DNA of 50,424 nucleotides from a bacterium (GTDB lineage Bacteria; Patescibacteriota; Saccharimonadia; Saccharimonadales; SZUA-47), in contig JAUHWW010000004.1 of the NCBI GenBank assembly GCA_030427365.1, positions 1-50,424 of the forward strand, in the 5' to 3' direction. Position numbers and translations under genes: made by a program. The notes under the pieces are model-generated. The model saw only the letters and a list, made by a program, of their open reading frames with translations. It searched no databases and was not told where the DNA came from. This document shows positions 5,336 through 46,465 of this stretch, piece by piece; position 1 is the stretch's first letter; every line of letters starts with the position of its first letter.

Positions 5336-5373
5336 ACAAAATACCTCAGCTTTAGCTGGGGTTTTTTGTTGGT
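5332..5373 (+). terminator. Intrinsic terminator-like hairpin after tRNA-Glu
   Basis: ACCAACAAAA-T-ACCTCAGC loop GCTGGGGT-T-TTTTGTTGGT; the stem extends into the tRNA ACCA end. Confidence 0.75.
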
Positions 5374-5519
5374 ATCCAAGAGCAAGCCAACTGCTTGGCT
5401 TGCGTGGGGTCGAACGGGCGCAAGCCTTGTTTGCCAAGAAGGTGGCAAACGGCGCGCCGGGCTCGTGAGCAAATTGCAAAGCAATTTGACTTGTGAGTTG
5501 ATTCCTCTTGAGATCACCA
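5374..5519 (+). repeat. Structured tRNA-Glu satellite ending in a duplicate of the tRNA 3' end
   Basis: 5500-5519 matches tRNA 5316-5335 at 19/20 nt; hairpins GCAAGCCAA/TTGGCTTGC, GTTTGCCA/TGGCAAAC and AAATTGC/GCAATTT. Confidence 0.85.
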
Positions 5520-5587
5520 AACAATGAGTCGAGCTAGTCATGGTGTTTTTTAGTTGGTTTTACAATAGTACGTGATTTTCTTATACT

Positions 5588-28793: not shown

Positions 28794-28864
28794 ATCAAAT
28801 AAGCTCCCTCGTGGGGCTTTTCTGATTGGAACTATTAACTAGGCTTGAACCCAGGTGTCCTGGG

Positions 28865-28950
28865 TGAAAACTGCCAGTGGAAGTTTGCAAGGAAATCTTC
28901 ACCTGAAAGTTTGCTTTCATGGCAGAAGTTTCGGGGTCGCCAAAGGTGAC
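28865..28950 (+). repeat. Three-hairpin tRNA-associated element, Lys copy (86 nt)
   Basis: Flanked by GTGTCCTGGG (28855-28864) and CGAGTCCCAGACGGCCCT (28951-28968), i.e. a tRNA-Lys 3' duplicate with the T-loop TT replaced. Confidence 0.88.
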
Positions 28951-28973
28951 CGAGTCCCAGACGGCCCTTCTTG

Positions 28974-41305: not shown

Positions 41306-41426
41306 GCCTGCCATTATACCGGTTTGTGCATTTCCGGAAACCGCAATATCTGGTATAATCAACCCCTGTTACTATCACTGTAGCTCCCCGATAAAAGAGA
41401 GCATACTTTTTTTCGGAACGAGCGAG

Positions 41427-41494
41427 AAATTTTGTTTGAGGCAAATGCCAGGCAAAAAGTATCGTCTTTGCCTGGCCTAGCACAAACAAAATTT
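41427..41494. other. Long inverted repeat upstream of tRNA-Gly
   Basis: AAATTTTGTTTG...GCCAGGCAAA / TTTGCCTGGC...CAAACAAAATTT. Confidence 0.7.
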
Positions 41495-41497
41495 TGA

Positions 41498-41572: not shown

Positions 41573-41601
41573 CATGTTACTTGCAGTACCTTAGCTAGCA
41601 C

Positions 41602-41626
41602 GCCCTGGTAGCTCAGCGGATTAGAG
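41602..41626 (+). repeat. Exact duplicate of tRNA-Arg(TCT) nt 1-25
   Basis: GCCCTGGTAGCTCAGCGGATTAGAG is identical to 41783-41807. Confidence 0.95.
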
Positions 41627-41713
41627 TGAGGGATGCCTATGGCATGCCGCAAGGAGACTTTCCTCATCAATCTATGATTGATTGAGCGAAATCTCGGGGT
41701 CGCGGAACGTGGC
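41627..41713 (+). repeat. Three-hairpin tRNA-associated element, Arg copy (87 nt)
   Basis: TGA-GGGATGCC/GGCATGCC-GCAAG-GAGACTTTC...GAAATCTC-GGGGTCGC-GGAAC-GTGGC; tRNA sequence GCGGG resumes after it. Confidence 0.85.
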
Positions 41714-41782
41714 GCGGGTTTCCCGCTGCTCGGACCAAACCCATTCACACAATTTAACAACAAATGGTTCCTTAATTGATAC

Positions 41783-42526: not shown

Positions 42527-43057
42527 TTAGGTGATTATTCTTTCGAGCACAGTTCCGAGTGTGTAGGCAATAAGCGCTGCTGCAACACCGAGTCCAAGAG
42601 TTTCAAGCACAGACTTTGCCTTATCAACTCCTGTTACGACAGCTCTCAAATAGCCGATACCTGCGAATGCCGCGAGCGTTAAGAATATCGAGTATATGAG
42701 TGCATTATCGCCGAGCTGTAATTCAAACATATAATCGGCAATGTAGATGACTAGTGGGACAAACCCAATGACAACAAAGGAAATAAACGTTGCAATTGAA
42801 GCCCCGAGTGGCGACTCTTGTTCTGCGGTATCCTTACTTTTTTTTGCTTCGAGCTGCTGATCGGCTTTTTCGCTAAGATACGCGCCAACCGCCATCGAGA
42901 ACCCGTCAGCGAAAACATTTGCTAACCCCAAAATCAGTATCACTTGACTGCTAAAGTTAGCCCCGGCAGCGCCAGTCACGATCGCGAAGGTCGTCACCGC
43001 ACCATCCATGCCGCCATAAACGAACTCACGCAGGTTGCTCTCAATTCTCCCAGTCAT
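42527..43057 (-). CDS. VIT1/CCC1 family Fe/Mn transporter
   Basis: VYGGMDGAVTTF and GLANVFADGFSMAVGAYLS motifs. Confidence 0.93.
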   Translation of the reverse strand: MTGRIESNLREFVYGGMDGAVTTFAIVTGAAGANFSSQVILILGLANVFADGFSMAVGAYLSEKADQQLEAKKSKDTAEQESPLGASIATFISFVVIGFVPLVIYIADYMFELQLGDNALIYSIFLTLAAFAGIGYLRAVVTGVDKAKSVLETLGLGVAAALIAYTLGTVLERIIT

Positions 43058-43086
43058 ACCTTTTAGTATCGCAGACGATAGACGGC

Positions 43087-43740
43087 TCAGGCAAGTGAGT
43101 TTATGAATATGACGGTAAAGAGTGGCGTAAATAGGTTGTCAGACCCGTATGGTGAGCTGTTCTCAAGGACAGTCGCAACTGCTGGCAACAACACCAGCAT
43201 CGCAAGCATGTTATTTTCAATTGTTTCTTGTCCGCCGATACCCCAGGCAATAGCGATTGATACGTACACTAGAGCAATATAGGCGACAGTGCCTGCGATA
43301 CTTTTTCGGAGGTTTTTCTTGCCAAAAACGTAATAGCTGTTGCTGCCGCCCCAGAACCGTCCTACAACCGCGGCGCCGCCATCAGCAAGCGCCATTAGTA
43401 AGATAGCCAGGGTGAACACCCAGGGCTCACGCGTAAGCAACGCGCAAAAAGCCATAGAAAGGGCAAAGAACAACTCGCCGTAAGTTCGCCGCTTTACCGC
43501 GTAAATCGCGTGAATGAGGCCAGTTGTACGCGAATAAATGAGCACGTTAAATCCGACCAAACTAAGCAGGAATATCACCTCAAGCGGGATGTAGTGCGGC
43601 CAAAATGCCATCCACATGCCCGCCAAAATATGTATAAATTTGCGTGCACGCTCGCCTTTCACAACACCTTTACGCCATAGTGCTTCTGAAATTAGCAAGA
43701 CGAGGCCAACCGGCAACAAGGCAATGAGAAGTTTTAACAC
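43087..43740 (-). CDS. Polyprenol/phytol kinase-like membrane protein (CTP-dependent family)
   Basis: RKFIHI, ADGGAAVVGR, KSIAG and GSDNL motifs. Confidence 0.85.
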   Translation of the reverse strand: MLKLLIALLPVGLVLLISEALWRKGVVKGERARKFIHILAGMWMAFWPHYIPLEVIFLLSLVGFNVLIYSRTTGLIHAIYAVKRRTYGELFFALSMAFCALLTREPWVFTLAILLMALADGGAAVVGRFWGGSNSYYVFGKKNLRKSIAGTVAYIALVYVSIAIAWGIGGQETIENNMLAMLVLLPAVATVLENSSPYGSDNLFTPLFTVIFINSLA

Positions 43741-43802
43741 AATGCATCGATTATAACACTGGTAACACCAGCAGATCTGCGGTATAATCGTCTGAGTAAT
43801 TT

Positions 43803-43827
43803 CGGGGTGTAGCTCAGTTGGCTAGAG
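43803..43827 (+). repeat. Exact duplicate of tRNA-Pro nt 1-25
   Basis: CGGGGTGTAGCTCAGTTGGCTAGAG is identical to 43972-43996; both are preceded by ATTT; TATAAT at 43783. Confidence 0.95.
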
Positions 43828-43914
43828 TGAGAGCCGTCGGTGACGGGTCGCAAGGGAACCCACTCTTGAAAACTTGTTTTTCAAAGATGTGGTGACGGGG
43901 TCGCCGGAGGTGAC
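43828..43914 (+). repeat. Three-hairpin tRNA-associated element, Pro 5' copy (87 nt)
   Basis: TGA-GAGCCGTC/GACGGGTC-GCAAG-...TGAAAA-CTTG-TTTTTCA...-GGGGTCGC-CGGAG-GTGAC; tRNA sequence CGCGGTTTGG resumes at 43915. Confidence 0.88.
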
Positions 43915-43971
43915 CGCGGTTTGGCCCAAACCTGACCGAAATGTCACTAAACTAATTTACAATTTATATTT

Positions 43972-44048
43972 CGGGGTGTAGCTCAGTTGGCTAGAGTGCG
44001 CGGTTTGGGACCGTGAGGTCGGAGGTTCAAGTCCTCTCACCCCGACCA
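43972..44048 (+). tRNA. tRNA-Pro(TGG)
   Basis: Anticodon arm CGCGG-TTTGGGA-CCGTG; GGTTCAAGTCC; CCA. Confidence 0.97.
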
Positions 44049-44119
44049 AATAAAGATCCGTCCGTTTGGACGGTTTTTTATTTGGTTTCTGAGGGATGAG
44101 ATGGGCTTGAACCGTTAGG

Positions 44120-44209
44120 TGAGAAGTGCCATAAGCGCACTTCGCAAGAGAATCTTTCAGCTATGAAACTTGTTTCATGCTTGAAAGTTCTGGGCCCGCA
44201 GAATGTGGG
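44120..44209 (+). repeat. Three-hairpin element, Pro 3' copy a (90 nt)
   Basis: TGA-GAAGTGC/GCACTTC-GCAAG-AGAATCTTTCAG...TTGAAAGTTCT-GGGCCCGC-AGAAT-GTGGG; followed by an exact 21-nt tRNA-Pro 3' end (44210-44230). Confidence 0.88.
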
Positions 44210-44315
44210 CAAGTCCTCTCACCCCGACCAAAGAAAAGAGTCGTCCAAATGGACGGCTTTTTTCTTTGATTAGAGGTAGGATTTGTAGCTCAAACCTCAC
44301 GGAGTGAGTCGGAGG

Positions 44316-44413
44316 TGAGGAGTGCTGCGTCTAGCACTCCGGAAACCCGGAAGCAGATTTTGAACTTGCTTCAAAGTCTTTTGAGGGCGGGGCGGGACTC
44401 GGCTGAATCCGCC
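44316..44413 (+). repeat. Three-hairpin element, Pro 3' copy b (divergent)
   Basis: Preceded by tRNA-like GTGAGTCGGAGG; TGA-GGAGTGCT/AGCACTCC-GGAAA-...TTTGAA-CTTGC-TTCAAA...-GGGGCGGG/TCCGCC. Confidence 0.6.
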
Positions 44414-44435
44414 AGCTGGCAGATCACCGAGATCG

Positions 44436-44521
44436 TGACAAAGTCCGGTGGCATTCTGCAAGGCAATCTTCTTCATCAAACTTACTGGATTGAACGAAGT
44501 TGCGGGGTCGCTGAAAGTGAC
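44436..44521 (+). repeat. Three-hairpin element, Pro 3' copy c (86 nt)
   Basis: TGA...GCAAG-GCAATCTTC...GAAGTTGC-GGGGTCGC-TGAAA-GTGAC, followed by degenerate tRNA-Pro end CAAGTCC...CCCCGACCA (44522-44543). Confidence 0.85.
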
Positions 44522-44545
44522 CAAGTCCAGTATGCCCCGACCAAT

Positions 44546-44575
44546 AAAAAATGACCGTACCCATGGTCATTTTTT
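44546..44575. terminator. Bidirectional terminator
   Basis: AAAAAATGACCGT-ACCC-ATGGTCATTTTTT. Confidence 0.8.
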
Positions 44576-44593
44576 AGTATCGCTATGTGCTAC

Positions 44594-45055
44594 TTACTGT
44601 TCACTACTCTGAGTATCTTCAACCTCAGGCTGCGTTGCCTGTTCTTCTTGCGACTGGCGAAGCTGATCGGTGTTAACAATTGGTGCGATATTTATGATCT
44701 TCGTCTCGCTGGCACGATAAATAATAGCGCGCTGGGGATACAGAACCAGGTAATCACCGGCCTGGATGTTCTCATAAAAATCAGGGTTACTCTGCTTTAA
44801 AATCTCTGGATCTTCGACGCGAGCGACGGTTGGGTTTTCATCAGATAGCAATAATACCTGACCGAGACTGCCCACTACTTGCTGTGTTTCTTCAAGATTT
44901 CGTTGCTCGACAGCTTCAGTTGAATCTTCTCTCGCCTCTTGAGCCTCATTCCAGTAATAAACAGCTGCGAATAATGACCCAGCGACGATGACAAAGGCAA
45001 CAAGCCAAACCCAAACATGATTTTTAGATGTTTTTTGCTGTGGTTGTGTTTCCAT
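44594..45055 (-). CDS. Hypothetical single-TM protein
   Basis: N-terminal TM; PTVARVED...PDFYENIQAGDYLVLYP..AIIYR region. Confidence 0.8.
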   Translation of the reverse strand: METQPQQKTSKNHVWVWLVAFVIVAGSLFAAVYYWNEAQEAREDSTEAVEQRNLEETQQVVGSLGQVLLLSDENPTVARVEDPEILKQSNPDFYENIQAGDYLVLYPQRAIIYRASETKIINIAPIVNTDQLRQSQEEQATQPEVEDTQSSEQ

Positions 45056-45094
45056 TACTTCCCCTACTTATGTATACGTTAGCAGTATTGTACC

Positions 45095-46465
45095 TTATTT
45101 TGCTTCTGTCTGCTGACTGTTTTCGTACTCCATAAGCTGCCTTCCTCGGCGATAGGTTACGATACTAAAAGGCAGCAGCAGGAGCAGAAGATATGCACGC
45201 TCCCACGAGATATCAGATCCCGGGCCTCTCACAACACTCACGCTGAAGTACCGCGTAAGGTTGCAATCGCCCTGGACAAAACGCACGCTACCGTTGTAGC
45301 TACCTTCCTCTAAATAGCGATGCTGGTACGTTCTTGGGCGGGTTGCATCGTGATCAAATCGTTCATCAATGCTATCATCGCCCCACTGGATTGTAGCTAC
45401 CCCATCGCCGCTTGTTTGCAGCACATCGATTGGTACAGGCTCCCCGACCGATAGTTCCCAAAAACGATACTGGCTCAACGTAAACAACTGTTCATTACAT
45501 GCTGAGTTGATTCTAGTAAATGATAACGATAAGCTTCGTGACAGTACGCTGCACTCTCCATCAATACACGCTTCAAACGTCAGTGTGACCGGGCTATAGC
45601 GTGCCGTATACACAAACGACCATTTGCCGTTTGCATCTGCGATAATTGACCCATACTCTTGTCCATCTTCGTAGATAATTATCTGTGCATTGGGCAGCGA
45701 ACGCCCGCTTACAACGACTGAGTCACCATCGATTGTGCTTCCGTCCTCCGGACTCTCAGGAGTTGGTGGCGGCAAAACAACGGTTGGCGACGGCGTAAAA
45801 TCAGGCTGTTCAGCTGATGCATCCGCCGCAATGGTAAATGACTGCAGCTTAGAAAAGTTGCTCTCTGATCCCCCTTGCGCCACTTTTACTTTTGCCGTGT
45901 AGGCGCCTGGATTTAACGATGCAGCGGCTAAACGAAATTCAAAATAACCGTTAATACTGCTAGTAGTCGATCGCGTCTGAAGAGGAGAAAGTTCTAATGT
46001 CAACGGCGCATTAGGCAAACTGTAGCCACTTAAAACAACGTCACCAGTAGAAATCGTTGCAGCAGAACGTCGGCTAAGAGTCGGGGGCAACAAGAAATCG
46101 ATGGAGGTTGTTTGCTGCGGCGTAACACTCAGCTGACGGCTGACTCGCTGTGAAGTAACCGACTCCTGATCGTCGAACTGGGCTGAGACTGTCTTTACTC
46201 CAGGCGAACTAACAAAATTCGATGAAAAATACCCATTACTATCAGCAAGAACTGATGCTTTCAAGTTTGAACCGCTAAACACCTGCACCAGCGCATTGGG
46301 AGCCGCGTAACCAGTTGCTTCGATCCTCGTTTCCGGTATCGTCAGCTGCACAGGCTTGGATATCGTAGACGCGCTTGCAATCGATGGCAACGTTAACACA
46401 CATATAAAAGAAAACGCGATTGATACCCTTAGCACACGTTGCAACTGTACCCAGGCCCTACCCAC
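45095..46465 (-). CDS. Secreted Ig-like (Big)/PKD repeat protein with C-terminal TM
   Basis: Three repeats of the G-x-x-x-PNA...ADxNG-x-F/W pattern; WGDD PKD-like motif. Confidence 0.8.
   Translation of the reverse strand: MGRAWVQLQRVLRVSIAFSFICVLTLPSIASASTISKPVQLTIPETRIEATGYAAPNALVQVFSGSNLKASVLADSNGYFSSNFVSSPGVKTVSAQFDDQESVTSQRVSRQLSVTPQQTTSIDFLLPPTLSRRSAATISTGDVVLSGYSLPNAPLTLELSPLQTRSTTSSINGYFEFRLAAASLNPGAYTAKVKVAQGGSESNFSKLQSFTIAADASAEQPDFTPSPTVVLPPPTPESPEDGSTIDGDSVVVSGRSLPNAQIIIYEDGQEYGSIIADANGKWSFVYTARYSPVTLTFEACIDGECSVLSRSLSLSFTRINSACNEQLFTLSQYRFWELSVGEPVPIDVLQTSGDGVATIQWGDDSIDERFDHDATRPRTYQHRYLEEGSYNGSVRFVQGDCNLTRYFSVSVVRGPGSDISWERAYLLLLLLPFSIVTYRRGRQLMEYENSQQTEAK

Follow-up and report, generated by a model that had tools for sequence, protein, structure and literature searches.

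Saccharibacteria have genomes of less than 1 Mb in which few mobile elements can be recognised. How, in such a genome, does a tRNA gene come to be surrounded by partial copies of itself, by terminators and by several copies of a small structured element? The question is raised by the tRNA-Pro(TGG) locus of a 935-kb, 40-contig genome of the order Saccharimonadales (G000; relatives are likewise given G numbers). The window, that is the whole stretch of DNA analysed, comprises 50,424 nucleotides of contig JAUHWW010000004.1 (here C28), and coordinates refer to it unless a locus or another contig is named. Within it, an element-bearing array occupies intergenic positions 43783-44580 and contains tRNA-Pro(TGG), one 5' pseudo-copy of the tRNA upstream, three 3'-end copies downstream (one exact, one lost through deletion and one degenerate), three terminator hairpins and four elements, E1 to E4. 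We favour, at about an even chance of being right, a reading in which tRNA-Pro is a hotspot that stacks degenerate tRNA copies, the newest downstream unit lying nearest the gene, while the 86-nt family to which the elements belong is a separate, structure-defined insertion element that occupies spare tRNA-shaped sequence.

The element was found by BLAST and profile searches as a sequence of approximately 86 nt that adjoins many other tRNAs of G000. Alignment of 15 copies revealed three hairpins (P1, P2 and P3), with compensatory double changes at 25 of the 31 predicted pairs. R1, a covariance model built for this short three-hairpin form, has 17 matches in G000, matches 29 of the 31 genomes of the bacterial family at 2-22 per genome (a tally that includes the unpublished G011 and G012), and, in a sample of 151 genomes from across the order, is found in 85. 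A scan for the third-hairpin motif, with one genome per species, returned 80 loci, 77 of them with the full element and nearly all labelled Saccharibacteria or Saccharimonadales; the same motif was not found in the viral contigs scanned. We evaluated the pairing in 102 copies, 100 of them distinct, against shuffled and slid controls. Base pairs were formed in 97.8% of pair cells of the distinct copies, compared to 76.7% in shuffles and 33-45% in slid controls, in an alignment that was fitted to the model and in which the conservation of P3 is inflated by the choice of 77 loci through their third-hairpin motif. Double changes occurred at 28 of the 31 pairs in these 100 copies, compensatory cells numbered 576 versus 141, with none of 500 shuffles as high, and one G-U pair was retained in 93 copies. 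The fold is strand-specific and has RNA-type CUUG and GNRA-like loops. A pseudoknot between the P2 loop and a linker was considered and dropped, as no covariation was visible by eye.

With Rfam 15, the window reaches threshold only with its tRNAs, and nothing credible appears in 43700-44650 at E-values up to 10. Similarly, a full-text literature search on Saccharibacteria pseudo-tRNAs and T-loop insertion elements found no description of this element. The 86-nt family is thus a strong candidate for an RNA or DNA structure family not described before. The sequences are diverse, the best pair of copies in G000 being 85% identical and the median 61%. There is also a long variant of 114-124 nt with three copies in G000, one of which is E3, and relatives of E3 at 75-88% identity are present in G004, G007, G008, G010 and G014.

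Two further units of the family lie in the window, one at 41601-41760, which precedes tRNA-Arg(TCT), occupies the D junction and has an anticodon loop reduced to TTT, and the other at 28794-28970, which follows tRNA-Lys(CTT) and occupies the T loop. Other types of module also take the T-loop position of partial 3' tRNA copies, as at 5336-5525 behind tRNA-Glu(TTC) and downstream of tRNA-Pro in G002 and G008 (L047, L055), and some of these have their first hairpin in common with the 86-nt family. Many tRNAs are in addition preceded by long structured 5' leaders, found at about 41354-41497 in the window and ahead of tRNA-Arg(GCG) and tRNA-Glu(CTC) on other contigs. These leaders begin with a tRNA-5'-like TGTAGCTC piece and hold a CUUG-loop hairpin; the same kind precedes tRNA-Pro in G007, G015, G018 and G022.

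The positions of the element follow a target rule. In a census of 134 unique units from G000, the family and the species scan, two of them from the unpublished G011 and G012, the base 5' of the element is G in 130. The element lies in the T loop in 84 units, between the 5' strand of the T stem and the 3' part of the loop, in the D arm or at the junction of the D and anticodon stems in 22, and in the anticodon loop of tRNA-Pro(GGG)-type copies in 8. The remaining 20 units are at other sites, of which by eye about 8 are in non-tRNA DNA and 5 can be assigned to the named classes. At least four of the five T-stem pairs are retained around the element in 63 of 77 units, and CCA is found at the expected offset in 35 of the 84 T-loop units. 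Approximately two target bases are replaced by the element, without target duplication, and the element ends (TGAGA.. and ..GTGAC) are not inverted repeats. The tRNA copies that carry it are dead, with decayed acceptor ends and anticodon loops shortened to three bases. At two loci (L097 and L040), the element sits in a reverse-complement copy of the 3' half of tRNA-Phe, again after GGG, so that the element has no fixed orientation with respect to the tRNA fragment.

Three observations bear on whether the element is inserted as a discrete unit. Behind the intact tRNA-Leu(CAA) gene lies a partial copy that has no insert in G000 and an 88-nt T-loop element in another species (L104); without this element, the flanks of the empty/filled pair align collinearly. 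The closed genome G004 has a short element (L181:4212-4296) nested in a long one (L181:4140-4334), after GG and with two bases replaced. G029 carries a full-length pseudo-tRNA-Pro upstream of the real gene, with a first element at the D junction and a second in the T loop. Taken together, the empty and filled site, the nested copy and the doubly hit pseudo-tRNA indicate a discrete insertion element. The corresponding unit of G022 combines the left junction of G029's first element with the right junction of its second, as expected if two such elements had recombined.

How these elements are placed around tRNA-Pro can be followed along the array, in which all features are on the plus strand. A TATAAT hexamer at 43783-43788 lies 15 nt 5' of the pseudo-tRNA start and is likely the original -10 promoter element of tRNA-Pro; in G013, a genome of the same genus without an upstream unit, TATAAT stands 12 nt ahead of the real tRNA. 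The pseudo-tRNA begins at 43799-43827 with five leader nucleotides, the acceptor 5' strand and the D arm to ..TAGAG. This belongs to a 31-nt exact duplicate of the 5' part of the tRNA (43799-43829 = 43968-43998), and a further 10 nt (43915-43924 = 43999-44008) are also exact. The two repeats flank E1 (43828-43914; 86.9 bits to R1, 28 of 31 model pairs formed), a short-type element at the junction of the D and anticodon stems, which is thus contained within a duplicated 41-nt stretch. The rest of the pseudo-tRNA (43915-43942, delimited by repeat analysis) consists of the anticodon-stem piece with the 10-nt repeat and a decayed end resembling the 3' acceptor strand. A promoter-like site directly 5' of the intact tRNA (43941-43970) has 9 of 12 matches in a consensus scan and is a pattern match only. 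The intact tRNA-Pro(TGG) follows at 43972-44048 (ARAGORN; Rfam RF00005, 63.5 bits).

Downstream, terminator 1 (44045-44086), identified by inverted repeat (19-nt arms, 89%), terminator scan and fold, has the stem CCGTCC/GGACGG followed by a T run, and its extended stem takes in the ACCA end of the tRNA. The second unit opens with a 5' arm at 44087-44119 that resembles the reverse complement of the tRNA 3' end, is predicted to pair with 44210-44232, and is also found as the flank in G002 and G008. E2 (44120-44210; R1 72.5 bits) is in the T-loop position and belongs to a subfamily of the short type with longer first and second hairpins; it is 85% identical to the copy behind tRNA-Arg(GCG) and clusters with tRNA-Pro units of G007 and G008. 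It is followed by an exact 23-nt copy of the tRNA-Pro 3' end (44210-44232, matching 44028-44050), which runs from the 3' part of the T loop to CCA plus two nucleotides. In the predicted fold of the unit (-78.5 kcal/mol, z -6.7 relative to shuffles), the 5' arm pairs with the tRNA-end copy into a long helix that encloses the three hairpins. The 23-nt and 31-nt exact repeats, both within 951 nt, cannot be attributed to chance. Terminator 2, an inverted repeat at 44229-44268 that likewise has a T run, is 71-73% similar to terminator 1.

The third unit starts at 44278-44315 with a 5' arm (inverted repeat, 80%) that consists of a decayed reverse complement of tRNA nucleotides ~39-64, a turn, and a forward variable loop with the T-stem 5' strand; cleaner versions are found in G008, G015, G007 and G014. 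E3 (44316-44439, 124 nt) is of the long type, also in the T-loop position, and matches the long-variant profile with an nhmmer E-value of 3e-30. E4 (44436-44521; R1 79.9 bits) is a short-type element joined to the right junction of E3, and its first hairpin is defective, with 6 of 10 pairs formed compared to 14 of 15 in the second and 6 of 6 in the third. The right junction of E3, AAAGTCC, passes straight into the first-hairpin loop of E4, by which E3 and E4 are evidently fused by deletion. A degenerate tRNA-Pro 3'-end copy (44522-44548, 67% over 27 nt, in register) and terminator 3 (44545-44576, an inverted repeat with a 12-bp perfect stem and then a T run) close the array. E1, E2 and E4 form 26-28 of the 31 model pairs, with junctions after ..GAG or ..AGG, and the four local elements are mutually 51-70% identical. 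The array is flanked on the left by the gene of a 217-aa membrane protein (43087-43740) and on the right by a 153-aa gene (44594-45055), both on the minus strand. There is no credible coding sequence within it; the two longest open reading frames (ORFs; 79 and 75 aa) coincide in part with the structured elements, and neither has a Pfam match. A preliminary description of this DNA, made from the sequence alone, had reported about 800 bp free of credible coding sequence and had placed the TATAAT, the 5' tRNA duplicate with its element, the intact tRNA-Pro, the three hairpins and both the exact and the degenerate 3'-end copy correctly. Its count of four element copies is right in that all four are family members, and needs amending in that E3 is of the different, 124-nt type and is fused to E4.

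The same description proposed that units had accreted in a polar manner, the newest nearest the tRNA, and that the locus provides a chronological record. Comparison of eleven orthologous tRNA-Pro loci revealed that their unit sets differ, with zero to four element copies. G013 and G014, both of the same genus as G000, have no unit and at least one downstream unit, respectively, in a tRNA-Pro segment that is inverted relative to the 217-aa gene (L049, L044). There is one downstream and no upstream unit in G015, one of each in G005, and one upstream and two downstream in G007, followed by a second tRNA-Pro with another. G008 has two downstream units on a contig that ends at the tRNA 5' end, which leaves the upstream side out of view. 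G016, G018 and G022 have upstream units only. In G029, the doubly hit pseudo-tRNA is accompanied downstream by an element fragment only, after which the record ends, and G002 has the other module type at the same T-loop position. Unit number thus differs between genera, and no structural change was seen among near-identical strains.

Several lines of evidence support growth on the downstream side. Terminator 2 (44233-44272 in this comparison) is 82% identical to the terminator directly after tRNA-Pro in G005 and G029, and can be regarded as an older tRNA-Pro terminator; E2 and terminator 1 would therefore have been inserted between the tRNA and this older terminator. In G022, an 8-kb large-serine-recombinase element lies between tRNA-Pro and an older block of remnant, terminator and unit. 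Read together, the two arrangements show that new material probably enters beside the tRNA. The tRNA 3'-end copy was described as exact proximally and decayed distally, which is correct here and equally so at the other multi-unit loci of G000 (3 of 3: Pro, Leu-TAA and Glu-CTC). Finally, the four local elements fall in different clades of the family, in a tree that is weakly supported and drawn from a short alignment, and other genera have units of the same subfamily at tRNA-Pro. Together, the position of terminator 2, the G022 element, the polar decay, the differing unit sets and the divergence of the local copies favour import next to the tRNA over local duplication as the mode of growth.

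The upstream unit sets a limit to this idea. It is found at the same junction in 7 genera, where the copies show compensatory changes at 16 of 29 pairs, and it is either old or recurrent, a tandem pseudo-tRNA and not an accreted 3' unit. Between G000 and G005, the element of this unit is 69% identical and the spacer 80%, which suggests either that elements have been swapped within a frame that is itself conserved, or that selection acts on structure. The E3/E4 deletion, the inversion in G013 and G014, and such a swap of elements blur any chronological record. Polar accretion is partly supported, by terminator 2, G022 and the decay at all three loci, tempered by a static array at the strain level and by the upstream unit common to 7 genera.

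The static behaviour is apparent from metagenomes. The region 43000-45100 is contained whole in a contig from another sample, with 11 substitutions and neither an indel nor a joint, and three further metagenome runs cover the same region piecewise with the same changes. The array is thus fixed in the species-level population. Ten of the 11 changes lie within 43820-44585, including four in E3, and the 740 nt compared of the left gene show no change; one difference is a G>A in the D loop of the 5' part of the pseudo-tRNA. Much of the array therefore evolves like unconstrained DNA, and the distal units look like relics, judging from this clustering and the broken first hairpin of E4.

We considered which enzymes could mobilise the element. 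G000 encodes one Xer-like tyrosine recombinase and one large serine recombinase, on contigs C35 and C38. A tyrosine recombinase of similar score is present in 25 of the 31 family genomes, including the element-less G020 and G021, and in all 22 of those at least 90% complete, most of which have only the conserved copy. The large serine recombinase (C38; L057:582-2231) overlaps with its 3' end tRNA-Gln(CTG) (2154-2227) on the opposite strand. Such enzymes convergent to a tRNA and overlapping its 3' end were also observed at tRNA-Gln(CTG) in G004 and at tRNA-Pro in G020 and G022 (L179-L181), and the overlap suggests an attachment site inside the end of the recombinase gene. As the origin of the element, the large serine recombinase was rejected, because element counts do not follow its presence and the unit in G022 predates the recombinase element; we retain it as one source of tRNA-end repeats. 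RAYT-like genes (~204 aa, with HUH and Tyr motifs; L182-L189) occur in 46 of the 151 genomes of the order and not in G000. The element is present in 37 of the 46 genomes that carry them versus 48 of the other 105 in a cross-tally; at 8 of 8 loci, however, the flanking repetitive extragenic palindromes (REPs) are unrelated to the element, which does not occur within 1.3 kb, and these genes were rejected as mobilisers. The junction sequences also do not fit an integron-like crossover between G and TT, the IS91 target (GTTC/CTTG) or IS200/605-type ends. No site-specific integrase was found within or beside the array, which contains no ORF of more than 79 aa, and G000 has no reverse transcriptase, Y1 transposase (Y1_Tnp) or IS110 transposase. 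Elsewhere in G000, cargo ORFs without Pfam matches (243, 216, 289 and 255 aa) occur at L001 (C6:20200-22700) and L011 (C5:18600-21300), between tRNA-Glu(CTC) or tRNA-Gly(GCC) and element units that end in the 3' end of that tRNA; the units are preceded by a ~10-nt tRNA-end remnant and a terminator.

Our favoured reading can now be put as a sequence of steps. The tRNA-Pro gene would serve as a hotspot for integration and duplication and collect degenerate copies of itself, with a single tandem pseudo-tRNA on the upstream side and, on the downstream side, at least three displaced 3' parts, each of which has its terminator. New material would enter beside the intact tRNA and push older units outward. 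Each degenerate copy would additionally be hit by the small, protein-less element, which would insert after G at loop or junction positions of tRNA-shaped sequence and replace about two bases. Hits in a single essential tRNA would be lethal and only those in spare copies would survive, which would account for the constant presence of the element beside an intact tRNA. We infer this order of events from the arrangement of the locus; mobility would be in trans, by an enzyme acting on one DNA strand or on RNA, and E1 would be co-transcribed with the tRNA.

Several points weigh against this reading. A mobilising enzyme was not found in G000, and the presence of a serine recombinase (17 of the 31 family genomes) is unrelated to element counts. 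Insertion polymorphism was not seen among near-identical strains in the four DNA runs from other samples, nor was the third-hairpin motif present in the viral contigs scanned. The direction of the tRNA-Leu(CAA) change, insertion or clean loss, is judged from the T-loop-like sequence at the empty site, and since target duplications and inverted ends are absent, they do not define a known transposition chemistry. Above all, old and divergent copies keep nearly all their pairing, unlike dead selfish copies, which points to selection on each copy, and the copies at the shared junction in 7 genera have kept their structure through compensatory changes. Such retention would fit a functional RNA or a recombination site better than dead selfish copies, and the readings are not exclusive. 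A bolder extension, which we hold only tentatively and consider unlikely, is that the element represents a new kind of mobile nucleic acid, protein-less and defined by its fold. It would insert after G into loops of tRNA-shaped DNA or RNA, either catalysing its own cleavage and ligation in the manner of a ribozyme, with the product then fixed in DNA, or exploiting a host enzyme that acts on tRNA or single-stranded DNA, and would persist in reduced genomes solely within the spare tRNA fragments left by island traffic.

The strongest case for a different explanation comes from the pairing itself. The units may be host-useful RNAs, in which a tRNA-derived scaffold (a 5' or 3' part with the anticodon loop removed) bears the three-hairpin module. 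Such a unit would be transcribed along with the tRNA or next to it, undergo processing by the tRNA-end machinery, and act as a small RNA or control processing, stability or termination of the tRNA operon in cis. Retention of the fold in almost all of the 100 divergent copies and at the same tRNA-Pro junction in 7 genera would follow naturally, as would the strand-specific fold with its conserved G-U pair and its CUUG and GNRA-like loops, the location of E1 between TATAAT and tRNA, the repeated cutting of pseudo-copy anticodon loops to three bases with the stem retained, and the stability of the E2 unit relative to shuffles. The distribution is patchy, however, with 0-22 copies per genome, 66 of the 151 order genomes without a match, and 2 versus 14-16 copies within one genus. 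The array moreover changes faster than its flanks, as the clustering of strain differences indicates, the E1 leader folds no better than shuffles (z -1.2), and the downstream units lie behind strong terminators. A cloverleaf or long closing helix as a general feature was rejected, as it is not enriched in 86 T-loop units (runs of at least 7 in 12.8% versus 10.1% of controls) and holds for the E2 unit only. On balance, we regard a host RNA as an unlikely explanation.

The retained structure could also mark a recombination site, in which the element with its tRNA fragment resembles an integron attC or depends on Xer, and the array is a stack of empty sites. A single DNA strand would fold, and a host or visiting recombinase would move integrase-less cassettes at the T loop. 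Consistent with this, units bound the cargo ORFs behind tRNA-Glu(CTC) and tRNA-Gly(GCC), and the copies, like attC sites, preserve their fold despite diverse sequences. Around the terminators, the orientation of tRNA-end sequences alternates, and every family genome of at least 90% completeness has a tyrosine recombinase. T loops are also known integrase crossover sites (PMC1762012). A fixed att architecture does not, however, predict elements in D arms, anticodon loops, non-tRNA DNA or another element. The element is inserted between the T-stem 5' strand and the T loop and not beside a complete core site, the cargo of G022 and C6 is bounded by ~10-nt tRNA-end repeats separate from the element, and G020 and G021 have the same recombinase without the element. 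This makes a recombination site improbable in our view. As for an origin without import, a single tRNA-plus-element unit that was duplicated locally in tandem, or multiplied by replication slippage, would explain tRNA-end direct repeats and two related terminators within 800 bp. The elements are, however, too divergent for such an origin, being 51-70% identical, of two length classes and in separate clades with copies from other genomes and tRNAs, and the same subfamily occurs at tRNA-Pro in other genera. We have rejected local duplication as extremely improbable.

With up to 22 element copies per genome and with stacked tRNA fragments, tRNA genes stand out as the main places of genome flux in these bacteria. 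The target rule, a G and then the loop of a tRNA-like fold, is unusual. A mobile element would illustrate how selfish elements that lack an enzyme of their own can persist in a minimal genome. A functional one would add an unrecognised level to the biology of tRNA operons in a major uncultured lineage. In either case, the element explains many of the assembly breaks beside tRNAs in these metagenome-assembled genomes.

Among known systems, mobile tRNA introns share with the element short inserts in the D arm, anticodon loop and T loop and signs of spread between tRNAs. Group I introns occupy anticodon loops of bacterial tRNAs. Archaeal tRNA introns with bulge-helix-bulge motifs are found at non-canonical positions (PMC4090602). 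Unlike these, the carriers here are dead tRNAs beside an intact, intron-less gene, so that splicing is neither needed nor implied, and the Rfam intron families have no match at the array at E-values up to 10. The element is also reminiscent of REPs and their bacterial interspersed mosaic elements (BIMEs) and of miniature inverted-repeat transposable elements (MITEs), in being short, multi-copy, protein-less, hairpin-forming and intergenic, with a copy number that varies among relatives. It differs from MITEs in lacking terminal inverted repeats and target-site duplications, and from both groups in having three covarying hairpins instead of one palindrome and a tRNA-shaped sequence as the target. 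In contrast to REP/BIME systems with a RAYT, the RAYT-like genes of the order have unrelated REPs of their own, and G000 has no Y1_Tnp. Integron attC arrays show similar conservation of structure over sequence, strand-specific folding, sites at cassette boundaries and anchoring at a fixed site; an attC is, however, a single imperfect hairpin with R and L boxes served by IntI, whereas here there are three hairpins, no IntI and sites in tRNA loops.

The closest parallels are with elements anchored at tRNA genes. Cis-mobilisable elements and attL/attR remnants, that is recombinase-less DNA bounded by att-like repeats, accumulate in tandem at tRNAs; the repeats here carry in addition an 86-nt structured module, which also occurs away from att-like repeats. 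In tRNA islands and tycheposons, elements are stacked, of which the newer lie beside the tRNA and the older are pushed outward and decay (bioRxiv 10.1101/2020.12.28.424599; PMC4383910). The array differs from such islands in having no integrase or cargo, units of only 160-290 bp, partial tRNAs that are split by a conserved structured element, and an extra 5' pseudo-copy upstream. The element moreover occurs at more than 10 different tRNAs in one genome, whereas tycheposon integrases are tRNA-specific. As in Islander-type islands and the tycheposons of Prochlorococcus, however, the 3' end of the intact tRNA recurs behind it in partial copies, here 23 nt exact and 27 nt degenerate. Occupancy likewise varies between relatives, some of which carry serine-recombinase elements at tRNA-Pro, and the position of terminator 2 fits a turnover that is highest beside the tRNA.

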